A stretch of 64,000 nucleotides of DNA, taken from contig CASFOK010000002.1 of NCBI GenBank assembly GCA_949296475.1, positions 10,660-74,659 of the forward strand, written 5' to 3'. The stretch is from an uncultured Pseudomonadota bacterium. GTDB taxonomy: Bacteria; Pseudomonadota; Alphaproteobacteria; Rs-D84. A program made the translations under genes and the position numbers. A model generated the notes under the pieces. That model was given only the letters and a program-made list of their open reading frames with translations. It was not told where the DNA came from and ran no database searches. Within the stretch, counting starts at the first letter, position 1, and each line of letters starts with the position of its first letter. Below are positions 23,706 through 59,324 of this stretch, piece by piece.

Positions 23706-23708
23706 AAA

Positions 23709-24797
23709 ATGACAACAATATCTATAATTGTACCAATATATAATGTAGAAAAATATATAAAACAATGTCTTGATTCATTGGTAAATCAAACATACAAAGA
23801 TCTAGAAATAATATGCATTGATGATTGTGGTACAGATAATTCTATCAAAATCGCACAAAGTTTTGCAGAAAAAGATTCACGAATAAAAATAATTAAACAT
23901 AAAAAGAATTCCGGTATTTCAACAAGTCGTAACACCGGGATAAAAAATTCGTCGGCGCCGTACTTGATGTTTTGTGATCCAGATGATTGGTATGAACCAG
24001 AAATGTGCGAAAAAATGTTACACGCCATAACAAATAACAAAGTGGACTTGGCTATGTGTGGTATTAATGTAATATATGAAACAAATAAAAACCTAAAAAA
24101 ACACGACAAAACTTTTGCAATAAAAAAAGAAGGCGTTTTCAATATAGACAACAATTTTATATTGACACACAAACCTGGGCTGCCTTTTAAAATATTTAAA
24201 AGAGAACTGATAGAATCATATAATTGTAAATTTCCTGACGGGTTGAAATATGAAGACTTATACTTCTTTAACGTTTATTGCTTATGGGCAAAAAAGATAT
24301 ATTTATTAAAGGATAAATTATATAATTATCGCAGACGCCCGAATTCTATTATGAACAAATCTTTCTCAGGCACTACGAATGCATCTTTGGATATGATAAA
24401 AATCGCCATAAAATATTTTGACTATATAAAAGCAAATAATTTATATAAAAAACAATTTGATTATTTTTGGTCGAATTTATTTATTCGCTGTGTCAGAACA
24501 TCATTGACTTTCGCCGTTAAAAACGAATTCAAAGAAGAAATATTTAATTTGTGCAAACAGTTTATTTCGGAAAACTATGACTTTAATAACAAAAACAAAG
24601 AAACCAACGCTTTAATTAACAGTATTTATCATAAACAATTTATGAAGAAACAAAAGAAACTTGGTGGTTTAATATACGAATACAACGACGGTATAAAACA
24701 CAACTATTTACTATTTAACGTGTTTTCTTTATTAAAACGAAAAATAACAGAAAAAAATCAAAAGAAATATTATATATTTAATATAAGAATATCATAA
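23709..24797 (+). CDS. Family 2 glycosyltransferase
   Basis: ISIIVPIYNVEKYIKQCLDSLVNQTYKDLEIICIDDCGTDNS and the DxD-type motif FCDPDD. Confidence 0.85.
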   Translation: MTTISIIVPIYNVEKYIKQCLDSLVNQTYKDLEIICIDDCGTDNSIKIAQSFAEKDSRIKIIKHKKNSGISTSRNTGIKNSSAPYLMFCDPDDWYEPEMCEKMLHAITNNKVDLAMCGINVIYETNKNLKKHDKTFAIKKEGVFNIDNNFILTHKPGLPFKIFKRELIESYNCKFPDGLKYEDLYFFNVYCLWAKKIYLLKDKLYNYRRRPNSIMNKSFSGTTNASLDMIKIAIKYFDYIKANNLYKKQFDYFWSNLFIRCVRTSLTFAVKNEFKEEIFNLCKQFISENYDFNNKNKETNALINSIYHKQFMKKQKKLGGLIYEYNDGIKHNYLLFNVFSLLKRKITEKNQKKYYIFNIRIS

Positions 24798-24818
24798 TCA
24801 TATAAACAGGTTCAAAAC

Positions 24819-25820
24819 ATGAAAATAGATATCGTTTATTTATGGGTAGACAGCGCTGATACAAAATGGCGTTCTTTAAAAAATAAATGGGAAACTATTG
24901 TAAAAGGCCCCAAAAATGTTTCAGAATATGCGTATAATGAATCACGCTGGCGCGATAATGGCGAGTTTAAGTATTCTTTACGTAGCGTAGCGAAACACAT
25001 ACCTTGGGTTAATCATATTTATATTATCACCGGTTTTAATCAGGTTCCAAAATGGTTAAATACAAAACACCCAAAAATAACAATTGTACCACACGAAGAT
25101 ATATTTCCGGCTAATGCATTGCCTACGTTTAATTCTAGTGCTATAGAAATGTGCATACCCAACATAAAAAACCTATCTGAACATTTCTTGCTTATGAATG
25201 ACGACTTGTTTTTTAACCGTGATTTAAAACCGACGTTTTTTTATGACCAACAAGGTCGTGCAAAAGTTTTGTACTCGTCTATGAAAATAAAAAACAAAAA
25301 TATTGGTTTATGGATGGAACAAGAAGACGCTTACACACAAACTCTTATTTTATCTGCAAAAATGATAAACGATGTATATAAAAAAAACGTATATAAATAT
25401 CGTCCATCTCATGGCATAGACCCATACATTAAATCATCCTGGATTCAATGTCGCAATCATCCATTATTCAACAAACAAATTGATTCACAAATATATAACA
25501 AATTCAGAACAAATAACGAAATCCAAAGGTGGATGTTTAATTTATATGATTTAATACATGGAAAAGCCAAATTTTATCATTCCAGGGCAACAAAACATTC
25601 CAAGGTACCTTTTATTTCTTTTTTATATAACACATTATTTTACTTTCAGACCAAACGTTCACCAGTCTATTGTACTGACGCAACCAAAGCAAAAAAGGCG
25701 TTACAACGTGCACCAATTTTTTGCATAAATGATTCTCCGTCTACTGACCAGGTCACACTAGAAAACAATTCTAAATACATGGAAGAAATGTTTCCAGAAA
25801 AATCACCATTTGAAAAATAA
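24819..25820 (+). CDS. Stealth-family protein (capsule/exopolysaccharide hexose-1-phosphotransferase type)
   Basis: CR1-like IDIVYLWVDSAD, CR2-like RWRDNGEFKYSLRSVAKHIPWVNHIYIITGFNQVPKWLN, and CR3-like MNDDLFF. Confidence 0.75.
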   Translation: MKIDIVYLWVDSADTKWRSLKNKWETIVKGPKNVSEYAYNESRWRDNGEFKYSLRSVAKHIPWVNHIYIITGFNQVPKWLNTKHPKITIVPHEDIFPANALPTFNSSAIEMCIPNIKNLSEHFLLMNDDLFFNRDLKPTFFYDQQGRAKVLYSSMKIKNKNIGLWMEQEDAYTQTLILSAKMINDVYKKNVYKYRPSHGIDPYIKSSWIQCRNHPLFNKQIDSQIYNKFRTNNEIQRWMFNLYDLIHGKAKFYHSRATKHSKVPFISFLYNTLFYFQTKRSPVYCTDATKAKKALQRAPIFCINDSPSTDQVTLENNSKYMEEMFPEKSPFEK

Positions 25821-25824
25821 CGTG

Positions 25825-26847
25825 CTATTTACAACTTTTCATAAATTTGCAAATATTACAACGCAGTTTTTTTGTCCATTTATTAGGTGGATTATCAAAA
25901 ACACCTATTTTTTCTAACTCGCAGAAACGTGTACGAGCCACTTCTAAATCTGCATTATTATCTAAATACTTTATTTTTCGGAACGCCCATTTAATAAAAT
26001 ACCATTTAAACTTTTTAGACCACTGACGCATTTGATAATCGTCTGCTTTGTCTTTATACAATAAATAAGAATATTTTATTCCATCGCATAAACTTTGCAA
26101 AATACGAAGTTGTTTTGCTGACAAAACAATGCCACCAAAATTTGGTATATAGAAGTACAAAGGCAATGCACAAATTGTCACGCGCGGATTTTTCAACATG
26201 ATTGCACTCCACCATGGGAAATCTTCAAACAAAATTCCTTTTATAAATGGGGTATCTGCAATCAAATCACGTTTATATAAATTCTTCCACACTTGGCAAT
26301 GTTTTATTAACCATTTTTTATTTGGATTAAATGCATTATGTGCCCGTTCCGTTGCATATGCAAATACATCATCTGTCACCAAAGTTTTTATCTTTGCGGG
26401 ATTATATTTTTTATGAAGTCTTGCCGGTATCACATTATCTGTATCCAGCCCTAATTTATATCGCACCATTAGTTGCGGTCTATATATTCTGTCATATGTA
26501 AAAGACACAATATCAGAATTATCGCGCGACGCCAAATAATGAGTTATTTCCAACGTCTGTGGATGAATAAAGTCATCGCTATCCAAAAACAAAATATAAT
26601 CACCGGTTGCTATTTGCATACCAGCATTTCTCGCATCTGATAAACCACCGTTTTCCTTATTGACTATTTTAAATCTTTTATCACGCGCAGCATATTCAGA
26701 TAATATAACGCTGCTGTTATCCGGACTGCCGTCATTAACACATATCGCTTCCCAATCTTTGAATGATTGATTTAATACGCTGTCCAAGCATCTACGCAAA
26801 TATTTTTCTACATTGTAAATCGGGATTATAACTGAAACAGTGGTCAT
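25825..26847 (-). CDS. Family 2 glycosyltransferase
   Basis: VSVIIPIYNVEKYLRRCLDSVLNQSFKDWEAICVNDGSPDNS and FLDSDD. Confidence 0.85.
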   Translation of the reverse strand: MTTVSVIIPIYNVEKYLRRCLDSVLNQSFKDWEAICVNDGSPDNSSVILSEYAARDKRFKIVNKENGGLSDARNAGMQIATGDYILFLDSDDFIHPQTLEITHYLASRDNSDIVSFTYDRIYRPQLMVRYKLGLDTDNVIPARLHKKYNPAKIKTLVTDDVFAYATERAHNAFNPNKKWLIKHCQVWKNLYKRDLIADTPFIKGILFEDFPWWSAIMLKNPRVTICALPLYFYIPNFGGIVLSAKQLRILQSLCDGIKYSYLLYKDKADDYQMRQWSKKFKWYFIKWAFRKIKYLDNNADLEVARTRFCELEKIGVFDNPPNKWTKKLRCNICKFMKSCK

Positions 26848-26859
26848 AAAATATCCTTT

Positions 26860-27756
26860 TTACATTTTTAACATTTTATCAGCAAAAGACCCTTTTATAG
26901 TTTTTTTCGCTTGATTGTATGTAGTTTTCTGGAAAAACGCCCCAGCAGTAACATCATCAAAAACTTTTTGGTCAAATGGTTTGTTATGATATTTCCACCA
27001 CAGCGCATGTGTTGGATCTTGGTCTACATGCGGCATTTTTGCAAAATATTTCTTTGCCCTTTCATCATTCATAACCAAAGTCTTGAACAGCAACTGATGC
27101 ATAAAATAATCAAAACTACGGTTTTCATGTATCCAATAATCTAAAATCATGGCACGCCAAGCATCTAATAAATAAGCGCCTTTTCTGGACCTAATAAAAC
27201 AATTTTGCATAAAGCTGTATGGGCTACCCACATTTTGACCAGCAAGATAAACAAAAAAATCTTCATCTATAATCCATTGTGGTATTTCTGACGTAGCAAA
27301 ACCCGTTGAATCTAACCAAAAACCACCATATTCATATAATAATTCTACCCTACAGATATCTGCAAAATGAGCATTCTTTATTTTTCCCTGTTTACGTTTT
27401 TTAAGAATTTTTTCTGGCAATGTTATATAATCTAATAACGTTTTTTCATCTAAAACAACCAGTTCTTGTTTACAATGTTTACGAATATTTCTGAAACAGG
27501 CTTTGACTAATTCGGGGGCATTTTCTTCACCCTGCAACCATATAGAAAATATTTTTTCGTTTTTATCATTTTTTTCAACTTTTCTTTCAGGAATGGCGGC
27601 GGCAGCCGGCAGATAACGTTTAAAATATTTTGGTATCGTTTCTGATATTACACCACTGCGTACCGCACGTCTAACGTCCCTGGGACGCCAAAACCAATTT
27701 AAAATATGCCCACGTATTATGATATCAGACATAGCACCTATTCTTGCAAGATTCAT
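26860..27756 (-). CDS. Capsular-polysaccharide-synthesis-type glycosyltransferase (Caps_synth / Gly_transf_sug-like)
   Basis: IWLQGEENAP..., HFADICRVELLYEYGGFWLDSTGF. Confidence 0.65.
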   Translation of the reverse strand: MNLARIGAMSDIIIRGHILNWFWRPRDVRRAVRSGVISETIPKYFKRYLPAAAAIPERKVEKNDKNEKIFSIWLQGEENAPELVKACFRNIRKHCKQELVVLDEKTLLDYITLPEKILKKRKQGKIKNAHFADICRVELLYEYGGFWLDSTGFATSEIPQWIIDEDFFVYLAGQNVGSPYSFMQNCFIRSRKGAYLLDAWRAMILDYWIHENRSFDYFMHQLLFKTLVMNDERAKKYFAKMPHVDQDPTHALWWKYHNKPFDQKVFDDVTAGAFFQKTTYNQAKKTIKGSFADKMLKM

Positions 27757-47355: not shown

Positions 47356-48207
47356 TTATTCACCACGAATGACAATATCTTTACCATCACAAGAAATAGT
47401 CATTGTTTCCCCCTGCGATACAGATACTATATCTTGTGGCACTGGTATATATTCCGCATCTATATGCGTTGCGATATATTCACGCAACCGATTCGCAATG
47501 TCGCACGCATGCTGTGCATCTTCTGGATAATAATTTGCATTCTCTGAAAAAAAATGCTTTGGATCCATTCCATTAAATATCGTCTTGATTGTATCAGCAT
47601 AAATATACATTTCACGACCTGTATTTTCATCAAATACAAGCATTTCCTTTTCTGTATCGCCAAACATTTGTTCAGATAAATATGCCAGACAATTTTTAAT
47701 TTCTTTACGTTGTTCATCTGGTATATTTTGTAGCGTCTCATCAACGGGATATAAAACCGGTTCACACCTAGACCCAACAATATATTGACCATCTGGAATG
47801 TTTTCACCATCATCCATTGTTAAATTATTGTCCGTTGCATGCCATATCGTAAACGTCAATCCGCCTGTCAACAGGCTGTGTCCTAAAACGAATTTCATTT
47901 TTCCTGGTGCTTCATATTCATCGGCTTCGTTTACAGGTAATGTTATTTCTATTACATCATCAATTTGTGGAATTTGGTTATATAACCATGTATGATCCGC
48001 CAACCAGACACTTTTTTGTCCCTGTGCTTTGGCGCGTAATTCTTTTGTCAGACGTTTTACAACCAAATCCGCATGCGTTTCATAAACTTTTGCATCAACC
48101 AACAAATGTCCCTTTGCACCATCTTGACAAACCATTTGCATGTCATACTGTGGTCTGTCACAGGCAGTCAATGCCAACAAACACATGAAGAAAAAAATAC
48201 GTTTCAT
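47356..48207 (-). CDS. Hypothetical lipoprotein
   Basis: MKRIFFFMCLLALTAC lipobox. The ATG at 48207 has AAAGGTGA upstream, so the track start at 48291 is probably too far upstream. Confidence 0.6.
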   Translation of the reverse strand: MKRIFFFMCLLALTACDRPQYDMQMVCQDGAKGHLLVDAKVYETHADLVVKRLTKELRAKAQGQKSVWLADHTWLYNQIPQIDDVIEITLPVNEADEYEAPGKMKFVLGHSLLTGGLTFTIWHATDNNLTMDDGENIPDGQYIVGSRCEPVLYPVDETLQNIPDEQRKEIKNCLAYLSEQMFGDTEKEMLVFDENTGREMYIYADTIKTIFNGMDPKHFFSENANYYPEDAQHACDIANRLREYIATHIDAEYIPVPQDIVSVSQGETMTISCDGKDIVIRGE

Positions 48208-48314
48208 ACCGTCACCTTTACTTATTTTGATTAAACAAAACTCATTATCATCAGATATTTTTATTATAACATTTTTCACAATATAAAACAAATTTTTGAT
48301 ATAATAATAACGTA

Positions 48315-48914
48315 ATGACAGACGAACAAATTAAAAAATCTTTGCAAAAAATTTTAGATAAACTGCACGACGAAAAGAAAGGTATTTTTCGTAATAATTC
48401 AAAATTAAAAAACGGGATAATAAAAACTCAATTAGCACTATCACGTTCAATTCCAATCAAAGATGTACCTTTCAATGTTTCCGGGAAAGAAATAATAGAA
48501 CAAAAATTGGGCGACATAATTTCTTGCACTGGTATGGCCAAAGCATTTTTAGAGGCTGGAAAAAACAGTGGTTTAGATTTAAAGGCTGTCATAACAGTAA
48601 ACAAAGAATTTTTAGATAAAGGCGAAACAAATAACGACCATACTGTCCCCGCAGTAAAAATGCAAGACGGTCAATACCATATTATTGAACCCAGATGCAA
48701 ATATATTGATGCTTCAAATTGCCGTAAATTATTATCTTTACCGGTTAAAATTGGGCAACAAGTATTTCATATACTAAATTCATTGAAAGACCAAGCATAT
48801 GAAGTTGTTGCAATAATTGATCAAGAAGAACTAGAAAAAATAAAAACACTTAAAGATGTAGAAAATAAAAACCATCGTCACAACTTTTTCATAAATATTG
48901 ATAAACAAAGGTAA
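48315..48914 (+). CDS. Hypothetical protein with a possible transglutaminase-like Cys/His core
   Basis: 199 aa. The pattern ISCTGMAKAFLEAGKNSGLDLKAV...DHTVPAVKMQDGQYHIIEP resembles the C...H...D/E core of transglutaminase-like cysteine peptidases. By eye only. Confidence 0.5.
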   Translation: MTDEQIKKSLQKILDKLHDEKKGIFRNNSKLKNGIIKTQLALSRSIPIKDVPFNVSGKEIIEQKLGDIISCTGMAKAFLEAGKNSGLDLKAVITVNKEFLDKGETNNDHTVPAVKMQDGQYHIIEPRCKYIDASNCRKLLSLPVKIGQQVFHILNSLKDQAYEVVAIIDQEELEKIKTLKDVENKNHRHNFFINIDKQR

Positions 48915-49061
48915 AACAAACTTATATAGTCAGTTTATTTTGTGGTGGGTAATTCCCAACGCAAAATTGCGTCGCCCCATTTCACTACGCACTGCGCGCT
49001 TGTCCGAACCAAACAATCTAACGATTTGTATGCCCTAATCCATAAACACATGCCATAAAAC

Positions 49062-49091
49062 AAAAACCGACCTGCTCGGTCGGTTTGTTTT
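49062..49091. terminator. Bidirectional intrinsic terminator after tRNA-Tyr
   Basis: aaaccgacc-tgctc-ggtcggttt, with tgttttt on the plus strand and T-rich sequence on the minus strand. Confidence 0.8.
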
Positions 49092-49178
49092 TGGTGGGAG
49101 TGGGTGGATTCGAACCACCTCAGGCTTAAGCCAACAGATTTACAGTCTGCCCCGGCTCTCCAACTCCGGCGCACGCCC
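49092..49178 (-). tRNA. tRNA-Tyr (GUA), type II with a long variable arm; CCA encoded
   Basis: Hand-folded as GGGCGTG-CG-CCGG-AGTTGGAGAG-CCGG-G-GCAGA-CTGTAAA-TCTGT-TGGCTTAAGCCTGA-GGTGG-TTCGAAT-CCACC-CACTCCC-A-CCA. The fold has a C4/U69 mismatch and C at position 8. Confidence 0.85.
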
Positions 49179-49293
49179 AATCTCGTTAAAAATTGTCAAA
49201 AATCGGAAGATGCGACGATTTTGATGCAGGCGAATGTACAAAGCGTACACGACCGGAATCAAAATCAAGCAGATTCCATTTTTCACAATTTTT

Positions 49294-49368
49294 TGGTGCG
49301 GGCAGCGGGAATCGAACCCGCATTTCAAGCTTGGAAGGCTTGCATACTAGCCTTTGTACTATGCCCGC
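49294..49368 (-). tRNA. tRNA-Gly (UCC); CCA encoded
   Basis: Hand-folded as GCGGGCA-TA-GTAC-AAAGGCTA-GTAT-G-CAAGC-CTTCCAA-GCTTG-AAAT-GCGGG-TTCGATT-CCCGC-TGCCCGC-A-CCA. All stems pair. Confidence 0.92.
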
Positions 49369-49451
49369 AACAAATCAAAGCCCTGTGATTATATAATAAA
49401 TTTCCCTAAACGCAAGTGTTTAATTCCAAAAAGACACATATATATATTTAT

Positions 49452-50327
49452 TTATCTGATTCCGTGAATGATGTCCTCTAATTCCATCAAAAATTCCATA
49501 TCATAACCACGAGCCTTTAATCTTTGTAACATCAAATGCGCTGCATTGGCAACCCCTAAACTTTTGCAAATTTCAACAACCGTTACAATTTCATCACGAC
49601 TCATTTTATCCGTAGGCATTAACGCAACCGCCACCCCCAGCTCACGAACAGCAGCACGCATATATGCCGTCTTGTTATCGCAACAACCATATTCATATAA
49701 TATAGCATAATTTTTAGCGTTATTTAAAAACTCATCATAACTATATGCATTTATGTCTATATTTCTCATCAATCTGTTTTCAATGGTTTGACATATTTTT
49801 TCTTCTGAATATAAATATTCACTTGGATTTTTAGTTTCGTAATCAAGTGCTAACAATGCTTCTGCTATTACTTTCTTGCGAAGTGCCATATCAGCAAAAA
49901 ATTTAGAGTTTTCCGGACAACCCTTTTCTGCTAAAACTTCATAAATATGCGCCGAATTAAGTTGTTCATAAGGCCCATCCATTTCATCATCAACAACATT
50001 TTTCAACAATATATTTTCTATGACTTTACACGCTGGGACAACAGCAATATCTTTTGACTCGTCATTGTCTTTTGGTTCTGTAATTTCTGCATCAGCATCA
50101 CTATCAACCGTTTGCACAATTTCCGAGTTAATCTGGTCTGTTACGTTTTGTGCTTCTTGTACAATTTCTTGGTTTTCAACTTTATCAGATAAACCAAACA
50201 CACCGCGTTGATACATACCAAAAACAGTCAGCCCCGCAATCAGCAAACAAAAAATAATCCAAAACCATACCCTGCCCTTACGAACAACTTTTGTCTTTGA
50301 ATCAGTAATTTTGTTTTCTTTTACCAT
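49452..50327 (-). CDS. Hypothetical membrane-anchored protein with two Cys-bracketed helical modules (P291)
   Basis: TM segment VWFWIIFCLLIAGLTVFGMY, acidic linker, and modules CKVIENILL...YEVLAEKGC and CQTIENRLM...YAILYEYGC. Confidence 0.65.
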   Translation of the reverse strand: MVKENKITDSKTKVVRKGRVWFWIIFCLLIAGLTVFGMYQRGVFGLSDKVENQEIVQEAQNVTDQINSEIVQTVDSDADAEITEPKDNDESKDIAVVPACKVIENILLKNVVDDEMDGPYEQLNSAHIYEVLAEKGCPENSKFFADMALRKKVIAEALLALDYETKNPSEYLYSEEKICQTIENRLMRNIDINAYSYDEFLNNAKNYAILYEYGCCDNKTAYMRAAVRELGVAVALMPTDKMSRDEIVTVVEICKSLGVANAAHLMLQRLKARGYDMEFLMELEDIIHGIR

Positions 50328-50341
50328 TTTATTTCCTTTAA

Positions 50342-50593
50342 TTATTTAATTGGCGGAAAGCAACTGTCACCATTTTCAGGGCAACAGTTAAAACCTAGGT
50401 CCCCCATATCTGTAAAAACCTCGCCCGCGCAACAACCATTCTTATCCGGCGCGTTTCCGTCAGGGCAAACAACATCGCTTGTGTTTGTAAGAGAATTTTC
50501 AGCAACGTTTTGCCATAACAACGTTGCCCCCCAACCTATTACTATTCCCAACAACAAAAACAGTAAATACTTTTGCGAAACTGTTATTTTCAT
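50342..50593 (-). CDS. Hypothetical small membrane-anchored protein with a C-terminal 6-Cys domain (P83)
   Basis: TM segment YLLFLLLGIVIGWGATLLW, then CPDGNAPDKNGCCAGEVFTDMGDLGFNCCPENGDSCFPPIK. Confidence 0.6.
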   Translation of the reverse strand: MKITVSQKYLLFLLLGIVIGWGATLLWQNVAENSLTNTSDVVCPDGNAPDKNGCCAGEVFTDMGDLGFNCCPENGDSCFPPIK

Positions 50594-51270
50594 AATGCAT
50601 CACCCGTAGTTATCGGCGGATAACAATCACCGCCATCATCTGGACAACAAGCAAAAATTAAGTTACCCAAATCCTTGAACGTTTCACCCTGACAGCAACC
50701 AAAGCGATTAGGTTTACTTCCATCGGCGCAGAGACCCGCTTCTATATTTGCGGCGACCTGCTCTTCATCTACCTCGTCTATATCTTCGGAAACATCGGTT
50801 TCATTAACAGCACAATCTGCGTCATATTGATCCTGCAACATTGCTTTTTCTTCTGTGCTGCCGGTGGCTACCTCCATAGATTTTTGTAAATCTTTACAAT
50901 TTTGATTTTTCTTAGATAAATATTCATTTAACACTTCTGTTGCGGTTTTAACTTCTACGGTCTGAACATCTTCTGCTGGCTGGGCAACAGGAACGGGGGT
51001 AACAGTTGCCCGACCAGATGTCGAAGTTTTACGTCCGGCAATACTTTTAGAACAATCTTTACGATATCTTTCTTGCAAAGATTTTAATTCTGCAGATACA
51101 GAATCGTCAGGATTTTCAACTGCAGACAGTTCTGATATTTTTTGCTGCATAGTCGGGCAATCCATACGTTCTGCAACATTATTTGCAGTTGCAAAAGTCA
51201 TGCTTGCGTCAAACATTTGCAGACACATTAAAATCGCACCTATAAAAAGACAAATTTTCGCTTTATTCAT
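50590..51270 (-). CDS. Hypothetical secreted protein with two Cys-bracketed modules and a C-terminal 6-Cys domain (P226)
   Basis: Signal peptide MNKAKICLFIGAILMCLQMFDASMTFA and C-terminal CADGSKPNRFGCCQGETFKDLGNLIFACCPDDGGDCYPPI. ATGA overlap with P83. Confidence 0.65.
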   Translation of the reverse strand: MNKAKICLFIGAILMCLQMFDASMTFATANNVAERMDCPTMQQKISELSAVENPDDSVSAELKSLQERYRKDCSKSIAGRKTSTSGRATVTPVPVAQPAEDVQTVEVKTATEVLNEYLSKKNQNCKDLQKSMEVATGSTEEKAMLQDQYDADCAVNETDVSEDIDEVDEEQVAANIEAGLCADGSKPNRFGCCQGETFKDLGNLIFACCPDDGGDCYPPITTGDAL

Positions 51271-51946
51271 ATTTAACTTCTATCAGTTCAGAAGTTATAT
51301 CTAAATAATAAGGGTTTTCTTTTATCTTTTTTCTAAATACCTCGGCTTCTTCCGGCATATCTATTCTGTCATACAGATTCATAAATCTATTCAAATCTAA
51401 CTGTGATCTGCCGTCACCTATTGCATCCGCAATAGACATCTCTCTCACCGTCATAGACCTATACATTTCGGCGTTTTCTGCGCATCCCTTTTCATACAAA
51501 GTGGCATACGTATCCGCATTGTTCATATGTACAAAATAATCCATAGAATCTTCTGGTCTTAATCTTGTTTTCAACAATTGTTCTATACGAACGCAAGTTG
51601 ATAATATGTCATTTTGTTCAGAATTATTTTGTGCGACAGCGTCACGTTCAAATATGACAACGCGTCCCTGACATCCTTTTTCATACGCTTTATTTAAATC
51701 GCGCAATGTATCAATATTATCATCGTTAACGCCTGCAACGGTCAGGTTAAAAATTTCTTGTGCAACAGCTTCGCATTCTTGGGCGCCCATCATCATTTTT
51801 TTATCCGAAGTCTTAAAACCAAGTCCTACGAATAAACCACAGGCAAACAATCCTGCCAAAGCAATAACAGACAATATTTTATGCCTGTTGCTGCATTTAC
51901 AAACCGTATTTTCGTTACTTACAGCGTTTTTTGATAAAGATTTCAT
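51263..51946 (-). CDS. Hypothetical membrane-anchored protein with two Cys-bracketed helical modules (P227)
   Basis: TM segment ILSVIALAGLFACGLFVGLGF. Modules CEAVAQEIFNL...AYEKGC and CVRIEQLLK...YATLYEKGC. Paralogue of P204. Confidence 0.65.
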   Translation of the reverse strand: MKSLSKNAVSNENTVCKCSNRHKILSVIALAGLFACGLFVGLGFKTSDKKMMMGAQECEAVAQEIFNLTVAGVNDDNIDTLRDLNKAYEKGCQGRVVIFERDAVAQNNSEQNDILSTCVRIEQLLKTRLRPEDSMDYFVHMNNADTYATLYEKGCAENAEMYRSMTVREMSIADAIGDGRSQLDLNRFMNLYDRIDMPEEAEVFRKKIKENPYYLDITSELIEVKYE

Positions 51947-51967
51947 TTATCCCCCCTTGTTATATTC

Positions 51968-52582
51968 TTATTTTTCCAAAATATCGGAACTTTGTAAAGT
52001 GTTTAAAAATTGTTGCGTATCTTTATGCATATCGGATTCTATAAAAACCTTTAACACATATTGCACTTTTTGTTCATCATAACCTGGTTGTAATAATTTT
52101 GCGTTCATTTGTTCTTGCTGTGCAAGACCTACATAATATTCTGATTTCTCAGGACATCCTGCATACGCCAACTTATTATAAATCATTGAATTGTATACGT
52201 GTGCTACAAAATTAGGGCTGTCTTCTGGGAACAGTTTTTGCAACAAAATATCTTCTGTAATCTCGCAAGAATTTTTTTGTTTTTTTATATCATCATTATT
52301 AATAATGATTAACCTGCCGGCACAACCGTTTGAATAAGATTCATTTAATTGACGTAATTTATCCACATTATCTTGTGTTGCACCTGCTGTGGTAATATCA
52401 ATAATTTCTTGTGCAACAGCATCACATTCTTGAGGCGTTAATTTTTTAGAATTAAAAAAATCGCTGTTGTACATCAGTCCTAAAAATCCGCCTAAGCAAA
52501 ATAATAAAATCAAGGCCACAACGCAAAAGAATTTTTTCCAAAATCCCGTTTTTTTCTGTTCTTTTACTACAATTTGTTTCAT
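51968..52582 (-). CDS. Hypothetical membrane-anchored protein with two Cys-bracketed helical modules (P204)
   Basis: TM segment FWKKFFCVVALILLFCLGGFLGL. Modules CDAVAQEIIDI...SYSNGC and CEITEDILLQ...NKLAYAGC. Confidence 0.65.
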   Translation of the reverse strand: MKQIVVKEQKKTGFWKKFFCVVALILLFCLGGFLGLMYNSDFFNSKKLTPQECDAVAQEIIDITTAGATQDNVDKLRQLNESYSNGCAGRLIIINNDDIKKQKNSCEITEDILLQKLFPEDSPNFVAHVYNSMIYNKLAYAGCPEKSEYYVGLAQQEQMNAKLLQPGYDEQKVQYVLKVFIESDMHKDTQQFLNTLQSSDILEK

Positions 52583-52610: not shown

Positions 52611-53321
52611 TTATTTTATTATACCATTTTTTATAGTGATTTGTCTATCGGCACGTGCAGCCAAATTCATATCATGCGTTACAAACAACATTGCCATTTT
52701 GTTTTTACGAACTAAATCCATTAACAAATCAAATACAGTCAAAGCGTGTGCAGGATCCAAACTGCCTGTCGGTTCATCCGCCAGCAATATTTCGGGATTA
52801 TTCGCCAAAGCGCGCGCGACAGCGGTTCTTTGTTGTTCCCCCCCAGACATCTGCCCAGGCAAATGCGACGCCCTGTGAACAACGCTGGCCGCCTGCAGTA
52901 ATTTCATTGCGCGACTGTTTGCTGTATTTTCATCAACGCCGTTTGCCAACATTGGTAAAACGACGTTTTCAAGTGCTGTAAAATCTGATAATAAATTATG
53001 CCTTTGATAAACAAATCCTATTTTTCTTCTGCGCATTAAAGTGCGCATTTCATCATCCATTTTTTGTACGGGCGTTCCATCCAGCAATATGCTTCCCGAT
53101 GTGGGTTTATCCAACAATCCGACGCATTGTAACAGCGTTGATTTTCCACTGCCCGAAGGACCGACCAACGCAATGATTTCACCACGATGTAAATCAAAAC
53201 CGCCACCACGTAAAATATGCAACGGTTGCCCGCCTTCTATGAAGGTCTTTTTAATATCCCGCACAGACAAAACAATGTCAGCCTTGGATACTTTTGATAA
53301 AGAATTTAATATATTCGCCAT
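52611..53321 (-). CDS. lolD: Lipoprotein-releasing ABC transporter ATP-binding protein LolD
   Basis: Walker A GPSGSGKST, signature LSGGEQQR and Walker B LLADEPTG. Adjacent to the LolC/E permease gene. Confidence 0.88.
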   Translation of the reverse strand: MANILNSLSKVSKADIVLSVRDIKKTFIEGGQPLHILRGGGFDLHRGEIIALVGPSGSGKSTLLQCVGLLDKPTSGSILLDGTPVQKMDDEMRTLMRRRKIGFVYQRHNLLSDFTALENVVLPMLANGVDENTANSRAMKLLQAASVVHRASHLPGQMSGGEQQRTAVARALANNPEILLADEPTGSLDPAHALTVFDLLMDLVRKNKMAMLFVTHDMNLAARADRQITIKNGIIK

Positions 53322-53333
53322 TATTTTGTCCCT

Positions 53334-54587
53334 TTACTCGTTTCTTAAAACTTCCACAGGATCTGTGCTGGCCGCTTTCCACGCCGGATAAAGAGTAGCC
53401 AAAAACGCCAACACAATAGCTATAAACGCTATGCCGATAACAGTGCTTGGTACCAGTTTAGAAGGTAATTCCGATAAATAGTATAACTCTGCCGGGAACA
53501 AATCGCGACCGGTGGCCCATTGAAAGAACTGACGAATTGGCTCTATATATATAGCAATCAAAACGCCAAACAACGTTCCAAAAAACGCGCCTATTATACC
53601 GATACTGGTACCTGATAAAATGAATATTTTCATCATAGAACGTCGTGAAACGCCAAAAGTACGTAACACTGCAATATCTTTTGATTTATCTTTAACCAAC
53701 ATAACCAGGCTTGATACGATATTAAAAGCAGCCACAATAACTATCAGCATTAAAATCAAAAACATAACATTTGATTCAACCTGCAAAGCCCCGACAAAAC
53801 CGCGATTTAAATCCCGCCAATCGCGTACGACGAAACCGTCTGGCAGTAATCTTATCAAAGCATCACGCACTTCTTCTGTTTCTTCTGGGTCTTTTAAAAA
53901 TAAATCAATATGTGTAACTGCATTATCAATATTTAAATATTTTTGGGCTGTTTCTAGGGGCATAAATATATATCCCGAATCATATTCGTACATTCCCATA
54001 AAGAACGAAGACATTACTGGATACGCCATAATTCTTGGCATAGAACCAAAAGGTGTGGGCGTTGCACCATTTGCAGATACCAAAGATATATTATCACCCA
54101 TACCAACACGCAAAGCGCGCGTTAACGAAGCACCCGCGACTAATTCACCGTCTGTTATCTTATCCAACGGTTTTCCATAGATTTTCGTACCTGTCGCGGT
54201 TTTCGCCGCCAAATCAGACATTCTTATGCCGCGTATCATCGCCCCCGTATTATTACCATTTGCGGTTGCCATGACCTGCCCTTCGGCAATCGGAACAATA
54301 GACGTTGCGCTATCGGCAACGACTTTGTTTTGTTTCATTTTCTCTATCAAGAAATCGTAATCTGTGATTGCACCGTCTTGATAATAAACAACAACATGAC
54401 CATTCATGCCGACGATACGTGACAACAAAGTATCGTGAAATCCGCCCATTACTGACATGACGACAATCAGAGTTGCCACGCCCAAAGTTATACCTATCAA
54501 AGATACCCACGAAATAACAGAACCAAACCCACGTTTTTTTGCAGATAAATATCTAAAAGCTATTTTTCTTTCTAGTTTTGAAAACAT
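53334..54587 (-). CDS. Lipoprotein-releasing system permease, LolC/LolE family
   Basis: RYLSAKKRGFGSVISWVSLIGITLGVATLIVVMSVMGGF, a MacB-like periplasmic domain and a C-terminal FtsX domain. Confidence 0.88.
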   Translation of the reverse strand: MFSKLERKIAFRYLSAKKRGFGSVISWVSLIGITLGVATLIVVMSVMGGFHDTLLSRIVGMNGHVVVYYQDGAITDYDFLIEKMKQNKVVADSATSIVPIAEGQVMATANGNNTGAMIRGIRMSDLAAKTATGTKIYGKPLDKITDGELVAGASLTRALRVGMGDNISLVSANGATPTPFGSMPRIMAYPVMSSFFMGMYEYDSGYIFMPLETAQKYLNIDNAVTHIDLFLKDPEETEEVRDALIRLLPDGFVVRDWRDLNRGFVGALQVESNVMFLILMLIVIVAAFNIVSSLVMLVKDKSKDIAVLRTFGVSRRSMMKIFILSGTSIGIIGAFFGTLFGVLIAIYIEPIRQFFQWATGRDLFPAELYYLSELPSKLVPSTVIGIAFIAIVLAFLATLYPAWKAASTDPVEVLRNE

Positions 54588-54621: not shown

Positions 54622-55950
54622 TTATTCACTCAAAAAATCGCGCAACGCATCACCAGCAAGCGGCATTTGTGAATTGCCTGACTTTTCTGCATCAACTATT
54701 GATATTATTCGCGGGGACATAAACACAACTAATTCCGCGAATGGGCTTATCAAAGTTTCCGGCGTGGTTACGAACGAGTGTGTTGGAATACCTATTATTA
54801 TATAATTATCGCCGATACTTGACGGGATATTAAACGAAGACAATTCACCGTTGCTTGTACGCAGTACTATCTTGGCATCAATCTTATCACGACCACCAAA
54901 GTCACCGTATTTTGCGGTCGCGCCTATAATCAAGTCAGTTTCCAACCTATCTTCTTTGCTACATTGCCCGATATCAAAACGTGACTGCCAACCATTAGGA
55001 ATGACAAAACGTCCTTGGGATATCAACACAACGTTTGCTTGCTGCGACAAGAATTCTTGCAGGGTCTTGGTATTAATTTCAGGACTTACCACTAGTGCGC
55101 GCCCCACGATTCCAGGAATTGACATTTTTATATTATTATCACCGAACGCCGGCAACAAGTTCATCCATATAATCGGGTTGTCTGTACGGGGATATACGCG
55201 GTATACATCAATATCCCACGCTAACATATATTTCTTTGACGCTATATCGGAAATTATTTTTGCAACTTCACGTTCTGTCTGATAATTCCCCTCAAAGACA
55301 ACTGTTTTATCTTGCCAATCAACCAACAAATTGCGCATATCGGCGCCATGCATAGCATCCAATAAAGCCATAACAATGTTTTCATCTTTTGGCATTTTTA
55401 CCATCCACTTTGCGCGATGGTTTAAGTGAATTTCACCGGCAGCCGCATCATAAGAATAATAAACCCGCCCCATTTTTGCCATCAATTCAACGGCATCAGA
55501 TAAACTGCCTGACGAAATAGAACCCGAAATTTTTTCTATTACTTCCTCATCTTCAACCACAGATATATCTGTACCATCCAACAACCTATCCAAAGCCTGT
55601 TTTACGGTTAACTGTTTAAAATCGTAATCAGAAACGTTTAATTCTGGTAAATCGTCACCTACCCCTAAACGCACGATTTCTATTTTTTCTTCTGGTACGA
55701 CCGATATTACAGTTTGGTTATCCCAATTCACCTCGCACCTTTTGGGTAAATCAATAGAAAATCTTCGCGCGGTATCTGTTGTTAACGCGGCTTTCTTAGG
55801 AAAGATAGGAACAGAATTTTCATCAATGACGAAGTTTTCTACTACATTGATGGTATCATATTGTTGTTGCTGCGTTTGCGCGGTTTGATTGGCGCAACTT
55901 GTTAAAAATCCCAACGCAATCAAAGCAAATAATTTTTTTAATATCATCAT
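54622..55950 (-). CDS. Hypothetical outer-membrane lipoprotein, secretin-like at the C-terminus (tentative)
   Basis: Lipobox ALGFLTSC. Central AWDIDVYRVYP and C-terminal ...NYIIIGIPTHS...AELVVFMSPRII resemble secretin C-domain strands (viGGl ... eLlifitPriv). The usual P.LG.IP.LG.LF motif is absent. Confidence 0.35.
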   Translation of the reverse strand: MMILKKLFALIALGFLTSCANQTAQTQQQQYDTINVVENFVIDENSVPIFPKKAALTTDTARRFSIDLPKRCEVNWDNQTVISVVPEEKIEIVRLGVGDDLPELNVSDYDFKQLTVKQALDRLLDGTDISVVEDEEVIEKISGSISSGSLSDAVELMAKMGRVYYSYDAAAGEIHLNHRAKWMVKMPKDENIVMALLDAMHGADMRNLLVDWQDKTVVFEGNYQTEREVAKIISDIASKKYMLAWDIDVYRVYPRTDNPIIWMNLLPAFGDNNIKMSIPGIVGRALVVSPEINTKTLQEFLSQQANVVLISQGRFVIPNGWQSRFDIGQCSKEDRLETDLIIGATAKYGDFGGRDKIDAKIVLRTSNGELSSFNIPSSIGDNYIIIGIPTHSFVTTPETLISPFAELVVFMSPRIISIVDAEKSGNSQMPLAGDALRDFLSE

Positions 55951-55986: not shown

Positions 55987-56313
55987 TCAAATATTCATAA
56001 CCCTTTCAAATTCTTCAAGAGTCATTTCATATATTGGTTTTTGTGTTGGTGTGGTTAAATTTTGAACTTTTTTATATCTTTCTTCAAATTTCTTTATTAC
56101 AGCAACCACTTCTGCGGGCACAGTAATAGACTTATCTGCCATTAATCTTCGTCCGTATTCATAAACGAACTCTAAGGTATCGGCTGCAAAAAAACGTCCT
56201 ACATAATTTTCCATAGCGATACCGCCTTTCTCAACGCAAATAGCAGACATCATCATTGCCATTTGATTATAAAAATTTGCCAACTTAATAAAGTTTTGAA
56301 CTGTTATTGCCAT
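55987..56313 (-). CDS. Hypothetical 108-aa cytoplasmic protein; first gene of the minus-strand block
   Basis: ORF with AGGA 8 nt upstream of the ATG at 56313. No recognisable motif. Confidence 0.5.
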   Translation of the reverse strand: MAITVQNFIKLANFYNQMAMMMSAICVEKGGIAMENYVGRFFAADTLEFVYEYGRRLMADKSITVPAEVVAVIKKFEERYKKVQNLTTPTQKPIYEMTLEEFERVMNI

Positions 56314-56388: not shown

Positions 56389-56769
56389 ATGAGAATAAAA
56401 TATCTAGCAATATTATTAATATTATCTGCATGTGCATCTGCCAACCGGGGCAGTATTGACAACGCGACAATATTAAACTGGGAAAACGAATCCGTAACGA
56501 TGGAACAGTTTGTACGCGATCACAAGGCCTGTCTTGGTATTGATAAGCCTTCGTATATGCCCAAGTCACGTATTGCGAAATTAATAGCACCAAACCAAAG
56601 CGACATAATGCCTGACTGGGATGGTTTGTGGGTAACGTTTCAATCAAATGAATATAAAGACGTAGGTCAACGTTCTTTGTTATCTGTTCCCAGAAACACC
56701 ACATCAAAATCTGTTGGTGCATACCGTAAATGTATGTTTAGACGCGGTTATTTACTGCGTGCCAGTTAA
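56389..56769 (+). CDS. Hypothetical lipoprotein
   Basis: MRIKYLAILLILSAC lipobox; 126 aa. Confidence 0.6.
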   Translation: MRIKYLAILLILSACASANRGSIDNATILNWENESVTMEQFVRDHKACLGIDKPSYMPKSRIAKLIAPNQSDIMPDWDGLWVTFQSNEYKDVGQRSLLSVPRNTTSKSVGAYRKCMFRRGYLLRAS

Positions 56770-56820
56770 TTTTTAGTGTGTCACTTTTAAACCGCAATAA
56801 ATTGTGATATAATTCAATTC

Positions 56821-57501
56821 ATGAAACGAAATTTATGGTTTTGGCTATATTTTATATTCGCGATATTATTTGCGATATACTTTGCATCGCGAATTATAAT
56901 GACATATATGGGATACGGTAAAAACGCTTATATTCGTAACATATCCATAACAACCGATACATCAGGCAAAGATTTAACGGCACTTGCAGCGGCGGCGGCG
57001 GTTGCCCCCGGGACAAAGACTTTTGATATCAATCTGTCGGAAATAAATGAAAGAATAAACGCCGTTCCAGGCGTCAAGGAATCTGCCGTACACAGACGAC
57101 CGAACGGAAGCCTATCTGTAAAAGTAGAATTATACAAGGCTGTCGCGCTGTGGACAGACGGTGAAAATTATTTTCCGCTATCTGCCGATGGAACGATTGT
57201 AAACCAACCAAAAGCAGAACGTGACGAAGGCACTGTATTATTTCGTGGTTCTGTGCCAAACGACGTGTCCGATATAACCAAGGCCGCCCATAATTTACTA
57301 GCGGACCTAGATTATATGGAATGGGTTGAAAACCGTCGCTGGAACATACATACAACTGGGGGGATAACAATATTGTTACCAGAAAAAAATCCAACCGACG
57401 CGATTGGTGCATTAATTGTATTAAACAATAATCATAAAATATTATCAAAAAAAATAGAAATTCTTGATTTGCGTGACAGTGCCAGAATTTTAGTTAAATA
57501 A
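56821..57501 (+). CDS. ftsQ: Cell division protein FtsQ
   Basis: Short cytoplasmic tail, one TM segment, POTRA-like region (INERINAVPGVKESAVHRRPNGSLSVKVELYKAVALW). Lies immediately upstream of ftsA. Confidence 0.8.
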   Translation: MKRNLWFWLYFIFAILFAIYFASRIIMTYMGYGKNAYIRNISITTDTSGKDLTALAAAAAVAPGTKTFDINLSEINERINAVPGVKESAVHRRPNGSLSVKVELYKAVALWTDGENYFPLSADGTIVNQPKAERDEGTVLFRGSVPNDVSDITKAAHNLLADLDYMEWVENRRWNIHTTGGITILLPEKNPTDAIGALIVLNNNHKILSKKIEILDLRDSARILVK

Positions 57502-57513
57502 CGATATACAAAT

Positions 57514-59289
57514 ATGAACTTATTTGATTCGTCTTTTTTATGTCTTGATATAGGTACCAGCGGTGTACGCGGGATTGCACATCGCGTTCGCTCTGGACGA
57601 ATAGACCGTTCTGCGGTATACGCCGTAGACAGTTTTGATACAACTTTTGCTCTAAAATCTACAATTGACGAACTAGAACGTCAAATAGGTTCACATTTTG
57701 ACTCTGCATATATAACTGGTAATTTCGGTCCTGCTTTGTTTGAAATGGTGGCAAAAAGCACTACATGGAACAACGAACATAAAATAAACACATCGGATAT
57801 AAAAAACCAAATTTCACAGATTACAGCGCCAGAAAACTTTTATCCTATGCATATAATACCTTTGCGATACGATACGCCCAGCGCAAGAAACATGTTTTCA
57901 CCAATTGGTCACACAGACAGACAATTAATTTCTGCGTTTGGTGCCGTTTTTTACAGCAAACCTGAATTAGATAAAATGTTTTCCACACTACGTCGGGCGC
58001 ATATTCAATCAGACGCATTATATGACCCACAATATTTACTAAATGCAAGTTTTCGTAAATTAAAACAAAACACTTTATTTATAGATTTTGGTGCACAATT
58101 CACAAGCGCATCCATTTGGACAGACCGTGGCCCTGTATGGTATGAAAAATTAGAACACGGCGGAACAAATATAAGTTTAGATATTTCAGAACAATTAAAC
58201 ATAGATTTTGACGAAGCCGAACGCATAAAACGCAATGTATCCAGTTTGATTCCCAAAGAAATGGACCGCTTTACGCCGGCAGATACAGCTTATGAGTTTT
58301 CTCGCGCAGACGTAAACGATATTGTTTTACCACATATCGTAGATATAATTGCGGAAATAAAAGAAAAATGCACAAATGCGTTTTCAAAATATCGTCCTGT
58401 GCAGATAATAATAACTGGTGGCGGTGCAAATATTGAATCTATGCCCGAATTTATAGAAAACGCGTTTAATTTACCAATAAAAAACCTGCATTCTGATGCA
58501 ACTGTTCGTGCATTATCTTCTTATATTTGGGACGGCGAATCAGAACATCGTCAATCATACATGGCCAGAAAACAAAGATGGGGCAACATAACAAAAAAAT
58601 TAAATATGTTGTTTAAAAGGCGTCACAAAAAACAACAGTTTTTTGTACCAATTTTACCAAGCACGCTTTGCTTTAATATGAAAAGCCCTGTAACATATTC
58701 CATGTTTAAATCCAGTGGCATATCAATGATTCACGTGGACATCATGGACGGTTTTTACGTTGATAGAATCGCCGGCAGTATAAACGAATTAAAATACATA
58801 CGTTCCCACACAGACGCGCATTTGCATGTACATCTTATGACAGAAAGCCCATCTGTTTGGGCCCAAGACGCAATCAGCGCAGGTGCAGACACAATAATAG
58901 TTTCAACTAACACTTCCGGTTTACGAGACGCGTTACGATTAATAAAATCTGCATCACGTCGCGCCGGTGTTGCTCTTAATCCAGATTCGTCTGTTGAAAT
59001 TTTAAAACCGATTTTGCGTGAAATTGACGAGATTATGATAATGACAGTAAAACCGGGGGCCGCCGGACAATCCTTTAACGAGTCTTGTTTAAAGAAAATT
59101 TCCGTTCTTTCGGCAACCAGAAAAAAATATGGCTTAAAATATACAATTTCGGTTGACGGCGGCATAAATCCAGAAACCGCAAAAAAGTGCTGGGATGCCG
59201 GCGCCGATTTATTGGTCTGCGGTTCATACTTAGCAAAAAGTCGCGATTTTCCCGTCGCCGTTCAAAAATTATTAAAACAACCAAGATAA
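57514..59289 (+). CDS. ftsA-rpe: FtsA-like cell division protein fused in frame to ribulose-phosphate 3-epimerase
   Basis: Residues 1 to about 365 show the actin-like FtsA motifs LCLDIGTSGVRG, FIDFGAQFTSASIW and IIITGGGANIESMPEF. Residues about 380-591 are Rpe-like: ILPSTL, HVDIMDG, HVHLM, MTVKPGAAGQ, SVDGG and CGSYL. No stop codon lies between them. Confidence 0.8.
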   Translation: MNLFDSSFLCLDIGTSGVRGIAHRVRSGRIDRSAVYAVDSFDTTFALKSTIDELERQIGSHFDSAYITGNFGPALFEMVAKSTTWNNEHKINTSDIKNQISQITAPENFYPMHIIPLRYDTPSARNMFSPIGHTDRQLISAFGAVFYSKPELDKMFSTLRRAHIQSDALYDPQYLLNASFRKLKQNTLFIDFGAQFTSASIWTDRGPVWYEKLEHGGTNISLDISEQLNIDFDEAERIKRNVSSLIPKEMDRFTPADTAYEFSRADVNDIVLPHIVDIIAEIKEKCTNAFSKYRPVQIIITGGGANIESMPEFIENAFNLPIKNLHSDATVRALSSYIWDGESEHRQSYMARKQRWGNITKKLNMLFKRRHKKQQFFVPILPSTLCFNMKSPVTYSMFKSSGISMIHVDIMDGFYVDRIAGSINELKYIRSHTDAHLHVHLMTESPSVWAQDAISAGADTIIVSTNTSGLRDALRLIKSASRRAGVALNPDSSVEILKPILREIDEIMIMTVKPGAAGQSFNESCLKKISVLSATRKKYGLKYTISVDGGINPETAKKCWDAGADLLVCGSYLAKSRDFPVAVQKLLKQPR

Positions 59290-59324
59290 AAAAAGACCCG
59301 CTATAAACGGGTCTTTTTTGTTTT
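59290..59324 (+). terminator. Intrinsic terminator after ftsA-rpe
   Basis: aaaaaagacccg-ctataaa-cgggtctttttt. Confidence 0.85.

Follow-up and report, generated by a model that had tools for sequence, protein, structure and literature searches.

The gene found at positions 57514..59289 (+) of the DNA studied here raises the question of whether a protein of the cell-division machinery and an enzyme of the pentose-phosphate pathway can be one and the same polypeptide. This DNA, called the window below, is a stretch of 64,000 nucleotides on contig CASFOK010000002.1 of an uncultured alphaproteobacterium of the lineage Rs-D84. A preliminary description, made from the letters of the window, had noticed an open reading frame (ORF) of 591 codons that starts as an FtsA-like protein and continues into a ribulose-phosphate 3-epimerase (Rpe), with no stop codon between the two parts. 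Reading the frame and searching Pfam and NCBIfam confirmed it, returning a single ATG-initiated ORF of 591 codons plus stop, with zero internal stops and a predicted product of 66.4 kDa, where roughly 67 kDa had been anticipated. As far as genomic sequence can tell, the comparison of related genomes shows that this gene, ftsA::rpe, is a genuine fusion that has been inherited by all of Rs-D84/Enterousia, a clade of gut Alphaproteobacteria with reduced genomes.

The extent of the whole gene rests on its ORF, on the Pfam and NCBIfam domains and on the comparison with its relatives, and all of its parts lie on the plus strand. The FtsA core (residues 1-341; 57514..58536) was delimited by TIGR01174, a profile search of the PDB, Foldseek, its motifs and a predicted local distance difference test (pLDDT) of 90-97 in an AlphaFold2 model. 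In this model, the core reaches to about residue 341 and gives way to a predicted linker helix (residues 343-367; 58540..58614), basic and amphipathic from W356 to F367 and running into a basic stretch up to K373. A tether predicted to be disordered (residues 368-378, KRRHKKQQFFV; 58615..58647) comes after it, with pLDDT below 50 at residues 368-375 and alignment columns rich in Lys, Arg and Pro. The Rpe (β/α)8 barrel occupies residues 379-591 (58648..59286), with strand β1 modelled at residues 380-383, and is defined by PF00834, NF004076, the alignment to PDB entry 2fli and Foldseek. Every motif quoted in the preliminary description was found where it had been placed: LCLDIGTSGVRG (residues 9-20), FIDFGAQFTSASIW (189-202) and IIITGGGANIESMPEF (298-313) in the FtsA part, the basic amphipathic stretch WGNITKKLNMLFKRRHKK (residues 356-373; 58579-58632), and ILPSTL (residues 380-385; 58651-58668), HVDIMDG (407-413), HVHLM (438-442), MTVKPGAAGQ (510-519) and SVDGG (546-550) in the Rpe part. 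The sequence at the FtsA-Rpe junction includes QQFFVPILPSTLCFNMK.

The C-terminal half is recognized by Pfam Ribul_P_3_epim (PF00834) over residues 397-573 with 149.8 bits (cutoff 21.1) and by the NCBIfam rpe subfamily NF004076 over residues 382-586 with 183.1 bits (cutoff 165), while the stricter equivalog TIGR01163 gives 155.1 bits, under its cutoff of 212.6. Among solved structures, the Rpe of Streptococcus pyogenes (2fli) is matched with an E-value of 1.1e-38 in the residue alignment and of 3.8e-59 when a profile of 33 family members was used. The predicted barrel, with a pLDDT of about 90-95, superposes on it with a template modelling (TM) score of 0.92 and a root-mean-square deviation of 1.3 Å over 209 columns, at 34% identity. 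In this alignment, His407, Asp409, His440 and Asp548 correspond residue for residue to His34, Asp36, His67 and Asp176 of 2fli, which we take to be the metal ligands, including the catalytic Asp pair, so the claim of a complete-looking barrel with retained metal and catalytic motifs held. The phosphate loops PGAAGQ, DGG and GS are also present, and the metal and catalytic residues are kept in 21 of 23 diverse representatives. Thus, by sequence and predicted structure, the last ~210 residues form an entire Rpe barrel whose predicted active site is intact. A donor for this domain was sought and no clear one emerged, as the free Rpe sequences closest to it, from Trichococcus and Rickettsiaceae, reach only ~41% identity and are of mixed taxonomy. 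The GC content at third codon positions differs modestly between the two halves (0.27 vs 0.37).

Regarding the N-terminal half, Pfam FtsA (PF14450) matches residues 189-323 with 46.1 bits (cutoff 31.8), and the TIGR01174 profile, the ftsA equivalog, spans residues 27-323 with 71.5 bits, below its cutoff of 175.85. The 33-member family profile finds the FtsA structure 7q6f over residues 9-324 (E 2.1e-25), ahead of PilM (1.5e-12) and MreB (about 1e-10). Searched with Foldseek, the modelled half returns FtsA crystal structures as top matches, with TM scores of 0.63-0.77 over ~350-385 columns, and PilM with 0.56. The predicted fold is of the actin/ASKHA type in which, as is typical of FtsA, subdomain 1C (SHS2) replaces 1B; a strand-rich insert is modelled at residues 74-148, and Pfam SHS2_FTSA is recorded for the distant orthologues P0136, P0140 and P0143. 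The window protein, like most of the representatives, has the nucleotide motifs of the family, namely D12/G14 of phosphate-1 (core DIGTSG), D191/G193/T197 of phosphate-2 (DFGAQFT) and G302-G304 of the adenosine motif (TGGGA). In addition, the gene lies directly after ftsQ in the window and in all 83 loci of the close comparison set, the place where an ftsA is expected. The N-terminal ~340 residues are therefore most probably FtsA, by profile (with scores on both sides of the cutoffs), by predicted fold and by position after ftsQ.

PilM or another actin-fold ATPase, instead of a divisome FtsA, could produce part of these matches, and it has been named in public records, as NCBI labels one member (MBQ1928122.1) 'pilus assembly protein PilM'. 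Pfam PilM_2 also reaches 28.1 bits against a cutoff of 27, while TIGR01174 stays below its own cutoff and ftsZ is not adjacent. However, FtsA is the better match in every comparison between the two, as seen in the TIGR01174 score against that of TIGR01175 (26.4 bits, cutoff 133), in the PDB profile E-values and in the TM scores given above. The gene always follows ftsQ, in one lineage ftsI-ftsQ, it carries a helix resembling a membrane-targeting sequence at the position expected for FtsA, and no pilN/O/P/Q was seen in the window or the related loci, where the neighbours are ftsQ, tsaE, uvrB and lolCDE. Type IV pili, moreover, have been reported in UBA9783 only, and not in Rs-D84 (PMC12306168). 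A PilM-like identity is thus considered very improbable.

A fusion seen once could come from a missed stop or a frameshift during sequencing or assembly, the error that the preliminary description had named as fatal to its claim. The comparison with orthologues, which it had also proposed, answers this point. In a search of 5.8 billion proteins, more than 120 clusters at 90% identity were retrieved, whose members are all 588-596 aa long, 66-92% identical to the query and endowed with both Pfam domains; their sources are assemblies of NCBI, ENA, JGI and Logan. An exhaustive HMMER search of 50%-identity representatives added at least 17 further clusters of full-length fusions of 564-623 aa, down to 30% identity, each matched as one stretch over residues 1-588. 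Scanning one genome per GTDB species gave 204 loci encoding a relative. Of the close comparison set, 82 loci hold a complete gene, while in the 83rd the contig stops within it; an unbroken frame of 581-604 aa is read in all 82. The same continuous frame is thus repeated in hundreds of independent assemblies. One of the carriers, OZ007020.1, is a chromosome closed into a circle (958,618 bp). The one relative that appeared to be split in the gene calls (L092) owes its split to a 10-N scaffold gap and duplicated sequence. The cross-genome comparison rules out an assembly error at the window locus, and we regard an artefact as next to impossible.

Two candidates for an unfused relative were tried and rejected. 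The first, P0137, is a 209-aa 'free Rpe' that comes from L092, where at 2590-2990 the 10-N gap lies beside a duplicated 28-nt stretch and divides the calls into a 306-aa 'FtsA' and the 209-aa 'Rpe'; across this scaffold gap and misjoin, tblastn reads residues 1-589 in one frame. The second, P0133 (430 aa), is a gene truncated by the end of its contig. Artefacts of the L092 type could produce false unfused entries in protein databases. In none of the ~200 species, nor in lineages with as little as 30% identity, was a real fission found. The fusion lineages span 21-55% GC, and ftsQ lies directly 5' of the gene in the six distant lineages inspected, except at the P0145 locus, where a 207-aa ORF lacking a Pfam match takes its place. 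One distant lineage shows the order ftsI-ftsQ-fusion. The order being kept in deep lineages, the fusion is ancestral to a deep clade.

The carriers are metagenome-assembled genomes (MAGs) from the guts of humans, yaks, deer, goats, sheep, rabbits and horses, and many have been assigned to Candidatus Enterousia. This genus belongs to the order Rs-D84, whose genomes, smaller than ~1 Mb, have lost most of biosynthesis and respiration, and for which a partner-dependent lifestyle has been inferred (PMC12306168). According to the same study, these genomes have RodA, MreB, MrdA and a non-oxidative pentose-phosphate pathway minus transaldolase; it makes no mention of an FtsA-Rpe fusion or of FtsZ (PMC12306168). 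Some carriers have other labels or more than one copy (loci L041, L077, L044 and L046): the contigs CAVGNU010000015.1 and CAZJGX010000074.1, titled 'Bacteroides fragilis' and 'uncultured Muribaculaceae', are probably mis-binned, and two different fusion copies on two contigs of the Enterousia MAG JAZOUE01 suggest a mixed bin.

A continuous frame could still give two proteins, either by internal initiation near the linker or by cleavage in the tether (residues 368-378), freeing FtsA and Rpe. The tether is disordered in the model and rich in Lys and Arg, and an in-frame ATG of the window, at 58606 (Met365), would yield a complete Rpe. As most genes here carry no Shine-Dalgarno (SD) motif, an initiation independent of SD would also be conceivable. 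However, no start-type codon is conserved in position at residues 345-379 across the 83 species, where such codons amount to 0.67 per species, fewer than a rough random-codon estimate, and Met365 is of start type in one species of 83, the window itself. The sole universal methionine is Met389 (ATG 58678), inside the barrel and after both β1 and the substrate-binding Ser383, so this ATG would indeed delete the first strand, as had been noticed. Moreover, the conservation of frame and of linker length would be needless for two independent cistrons. Since no conserved internal start precedes β1, a single polypeptide is favoured as the product, and the production of two separate proteins appears improbable.

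The SD motif itself was of little help in this question. The preliminary description had argued that no SD-preceded ATG could give a full-length separate Rpe; its positions for both ATGs stood, and its argument from the SD did not, as SD-like motifs occur at -18..-5 in just 16 of 54 window ORFs of at least 136 aa (background 1.5%) and before the fusion start in none of the 83 species. An internal start with its own SD was rejected on the same two grounds, that is, no start codon conserved in position and an SD criterion uninformative in this genome. In the window, the fusion starts 12 nt after the end of ftsQ, and the 83 related loci all have an ftsQ homologue directly 5', mostly ~1-15 nt away; a start 1-15 nt after the ftsQ stop, with no SD, suggests translational coupling or SD-independent initiation.

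Between both domains, the linker conserves its length (40 aa in 69 of 83 species) more than its sequence, as the identity over these species is 38% for the linker, 63% for FtsA and 76.5% for Rpe. The hydrophobic positions Tyr349, Ile350, Trp356, Trp362/Ile363, Ile366 and Phe367 are conserved; acidic residues are nearly absent and basic ones dense at residues 355-378. The periodicity of hydrophobicity peaks at 105-110 degrees with about 4 times the mean power, and the mean hydrophobic moment is 0.67, vs 0.47 ± 0.14 in controls, with a net charge of +4.6. The consensus RWxRRTNWIxKIFKRK resembles the membrane-targeting sequence of Escherichia coli FtsA, which we take to be SWIKRLNSWLRKEF, and the moments of the two are close (0.67 and 0.62). 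Judged by its sequence, the putative targeting helix stands at the same distance from the FtsA core as the canonical one, but it is internal, with a domain after it. The idea that a basic amphipathic stretch occupies the place of the FtsA membrane-targeting helix was in this way supported by length, periodicity, conserved Trp/Ile/Phe positions and scarcity of acidic residues.

The features of FtsA are not shared by all relatives. The nucleotide motifs are lost in P0135 and P0271, and Asp12 of phosphate-1 is replaced by Tyr in P0140, P0146 and P0148. Because of this Asp-to-Tyr change and the missing amphipathic helix of P0143-P0145, neither ATP use nor membrane anchoring is likely to be uniform across the clade. 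P0143-P0145 and the three lineages with Tyr at this place have a higher GC content (48-55% where fetched), with the junction differing in P0143-P0145 (L084, L094) and the FtsA part in P0140, P0146 and P0148 (L085, L086).

Concerning selection, 34 pairs from lineages with a live active site give median Nei-Gojobori ratios of nonsynonymous to synonymous substitution (omega) of 0.045 in the FtsA half and 0.065 in the Rpe half, and both halves are thus under strong purifying selection, with omega of about 0.05. A lineage with a dead site is represented by P0135 and P0271, syntenic orthologues from genomes of ~25% GC, 75% identical to each other and each present on at least two contigs. In their Rpe half, His407 is replaced by Tyr, Asp409 by Thr and Asp548 by Cys, and the phosphate loops are degenerate. 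Nevertheless, this Rpe-like half keeps an omega of 0.20 with 80% amino acid identity, compared with 0.37 and 73% for the FtsA half, and these values are, if anything, overestimates, as the AT bias deflates the synonymous rate (dS). As the dead-site half keeps its fold and this omega, the sequences of this one pair give the main hint that the barrel has some function besides catalysis. The constraint on it is also indicated by an unbroken 210-codon frame persisting in very AT-rich DNA. The AT-rich (21-26% GC) dead-site fusions that keep a full-length frame lie at 10001-11770 in L088 and L089, 5001-6773 in L090, 116-1888 in L091 and 4568-6295 in L087. P0139 (23.6% GC) has a differently degraded Rpe site and no close relative for an omega estimate; it groups with P0135 and P0271 in a neighbour-joining tree at only ~31% identity, which fits one loss or two.

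The account that we favour, with modest confidence for the whole of it, is a fixed fusion that makes one bifunctional, membrane-associated protein whose barrel is probably also an oligomerising module. In this account, ftsA::rpe would be co-transcribed with ftsQ and translated as one 66-kDa polypeptide, whose FtsA part would perform the usual inner-membrane assembly and divisome organisation. The Rpe part would serve as the ribulose-5-phosphate/xylulose-5-phosphate epimerase of the cell in the truncated non-oxidative pentose-phosphate pathway, and would be active while held at the membrane inside FtsA assemblies. Rpe enzymes form obligate dimers or hexamers, and multi-chain Rpe entries are found among the PDB matches of the family profile. 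Because of this oligomeric habit, the barrel may, more speculatively, be a module for oligomerisation or anchoring, by which the internal amphipathic helix is made multimeric and FtsA protomers are cross-linked. Such a structural role would explain why no split is seen in ~200 species and why selection is kept in the dead-site sub-lineage. FtsA attaches to the membrane by way of an amphipathic helix at its C-terminus, and its oligomeric state governs divisome activation (PMC7613929). In a bolder form, put forward tentatively and with more doubt than belief, the barrel would be an integral, non-catalytic part of the divisome, placed right after the membrane helix of FtsA, oligomerising and possibly sensing pentose phosphates, which controls FtsA clustering or membrane avidity, being still an epimerase as well in most lineages and, in the most reduced, a pseudoenzyme retained for the divisome alone.

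Several observations count against the favoured account. The AlphaFold2 model of the fusion has a mean pLDDT of 91.8 and a predicted TM score (pTM) of 0.61, a combination that suggests no fixed FtsA-Rpe interface and equally fits independent domains. The hydrophobic moment of the linker is only ~1-1.5 standard deviations above random windows, the heptad-like spacing of its helix could equally belong to a coiled coil or a packing helix, and P0143-P0145, whose linker is short and rich in Pro and Arg, have no amphipathic helix. The dead-site pair shows relaxed selection on both halves and consists of two sequences only, at ~25% GC that biases dS. To these are added the TIGR01174 score below cutoff and the surroundings of the gene, as ftsZ was not found in the 64-kb window, nor within 10 kb of the gene in 96 loci.

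The low pTM, by arguing against a fixed intramolecular interface, makes a beads-on-a-string bifunctional protein a strong rival. According to it, the single polypeptide is real and its domains are independent, functional coupling being absent: streamlining removed the ftsA stop before rpe, and fission would need a new start signal. Genomes below 1 Mb and compact (PMC12306168) are what such streamlining would leave, strong purifying selection on each half is expected for two independent essential functions, and 21 of 23 representatives still have all catalytic residues. Against it, zero fissions are seen in ~200 species, and none in lineages whose identity falls to 30%; the linker length is near-invariant, and the dead Rpe-like half stays full-length with its omega of 0.20 at 25% GC, where unconstrained sequence gains stops fast. 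We give independent domains a serious, though minority, chance, and keep the bifunctional protein with a probable oligomerising barrel as the favoured account.

Turning to the surroundings of the fusion, ftsQ (226 aa, 56821..57501, +) has a POTRA domain and an FtsQ/DivIB C-terminal domain (PF03799, E 1.1e-09; the POTRA_1 match is weak). A promoter-like sequence, TTTAAA-16-TATAAT with TG, lies before it (56786..56813, +) as a candidate promoter of the ftsQ-ftsA::rpe operon; it is a consensus match only, and promoter-like sites in the region around ftsQ show no enrichment over shuffles. At the other end, a GC-rich hairpin (GACCCG-loop-CGGGTC, 59289..59319) with flanking A- and T-runs lies between the convergent ftsA::rpe and tsaE and looks like a bidirectional terminator. 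The preliminary description had located a strong terminator at 59290-59324 and had added that ftsZ does not follow the gene; the hairpin fits the first remark, and the second was upheld. The classical ftsQAZ order is thus not seen in the window or in the 96 loci, a downstream ftsZ being a common, non-defining feature of ftsA genes. Neither a second ftsA nor a second rpe was found in the 64-kb window or near the fusion in 96 loci, and Rfam and tRNA scans gave no match at the fusion locus.

Beyond the hairpin, tsaE and uvrB are convergent to the fusion gene. Upstream, on the minus strand, are lolD (52611-53321), lolCE (53334-54587; TIGR02212, 416 bits), a 442-aa lipoprotein (54622-55950) with a weak STN match and no other family, and a 108-aa ORF with no family match (55987-56313), followed by a 126-aa lipoprotein-like ORF, also with no family match, on the plus strand just 5' of ftsQ (56389-56769). 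Four of the six distant lineages looked at, at ~30% identity, share this block, in which lolD, lolCE and ORFs of 435 and 106 aa lie on the minus strand, and some of the distant lineages have tsaE-uvrB downstream. The remaining genes of the window, which has 38% GC, are of housekeeping type (ftsK, xerC/D, secDF, recA, ruvABC, lolCDE and tRNA synthetases), together with a glycosyltransferase cluster at 22860-27756. This cluster, adjoining recA, holds five genes of sugar-transferase or capsule type (GT2 family, a Stealth CR1/CR2 protein, Caps_synth) and is notable given a genome of ~1 Mb whose metabolism is so limited. No Pfam match was returned for six ORFs of 199-311 aa (47356-48291, 48315-48914, 49452-50327, 50590-51270, 51263-51946 and 51968-52582), their run at 47356-52582 being broken up by tRNA-Tyr (49092-49178) and tRNA-Gly (49294-49368). 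In distant lineages, type IV secretion genes (VirB4/TrbE, VirD4/TraG-like and VirB11-like T2SSE) are found near the fusion, at 19486-21716 of L085, 1786-4212 of L094, and 1-309 and 4848-6998 of L095, which fits a lifestyle of contact with host or partner cells.

Both domains are known, and it is their architecture that is described in no paper searched, as full-text literature searches for FtsA with epimerase or fusion found none on an FtsA-Rpe fusion. The view of the preliminary description that the architecture is unfamiliar stands in this sense and needs correction in another, because public databases already contain members, under the names 'ribulose-phosphate 3-epimerase' (MBR2412707.1), 'pilus assembly protein PilM' (MBQ1928122.1) and 'hypothetical protein' (MDR1027273.1), and never under that of FtsA. 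With hundreds of entries labelled only in these ways, automated genome reconstructions could miss FtsA. FtsA tolerates added C-terminal domains poorly, and for cell-division specialists a 210-residue enzyme of an oligomeric family behind its putative membrane helix, conserved order-wide, is unexpected. The fusion can be seen as a natural experiment on altering the oligomeric state and membrane avidity of FtsA, and its dead-site sub-lineage as a ready-made test of a non-catalytic role. It also gives a hint of the Rosetta-stone type that the pentose-phosphate pathway is physically linked to the divisome, in organisms that have hardly any metabolism besides.

Canonical FtsA and stand-alone Rpe are the nearest proteins known. 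Compared with canonical FtsA (E. coli; Thermotoga maritima, 1E4F/4A2A; Vibrio maritimus, 7Q6F/7Q6I; Staphylococcus aureus, 3WQT), the fusion shares the actin-like fold with 1C/SHS2, the three nucleotide motifs and the gene position after ftsQ, and the ~30 residues past its core hold a predicted basic, Trp/Ile/Phe-rich amphipathic helix in the place of the membrane-targeting sequence. It differs in being ~15-17% identical to the solved FtsAs and under the TIGR01174 cutoff, in its shorter core (~341 vs ~385 residues), in having this helix internal and followed by a 210-residue TIM barrel, and in the non-adjacent ftsZ. PilM (2YCH/5EOX), the actin-like ATPase of type IV pili, has its domains arranged as in FtsA, a 1C-like subdomain among them, and a weak PilM_2 match is found in the fusion; however, the fusion scores FtsA above PilM everywhere, has no pilN/O/P/Q neighbours and sits in a division context with ftsQ. 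With stand-alone Rpe (S. pyogenes, 2FLI; potato chloroplast, 1RPX; Synechocystis, 1TQJ), it shares the barrel, the metal ligands with the catalytic Asp pair, the β1 Ser and the phosphate loops, but the fused barrel has no start of its own, its β1 N-terminus being bonded to the FtsA tail, it is under the TIGR01163 cutoff, and two lineages have catalytically dead versions.

Metabolic enzymes that influence division are known from UgtP of Bacillus subtilis, OpgH of E. coli, and GdhZ and KidO of Caulobacter (PMC7794046). In addition, the Caulobacter citrate synthase CitA is reported to exert a control over the cell cycle that does not depend on its catalysis (PMC7083601), which by analogy may parallel the retained dead-site barrels. 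All of these are separate proteins acting on FtsZ or on cell-cycle regulators, whereas Rpe is here a covalent part of FtsA, and the likeness is an analogy only. If the barrel is a part of the divisome, the fusion would be the first example from nature of an FtsA that incorporates an enzyme of central metabolism.

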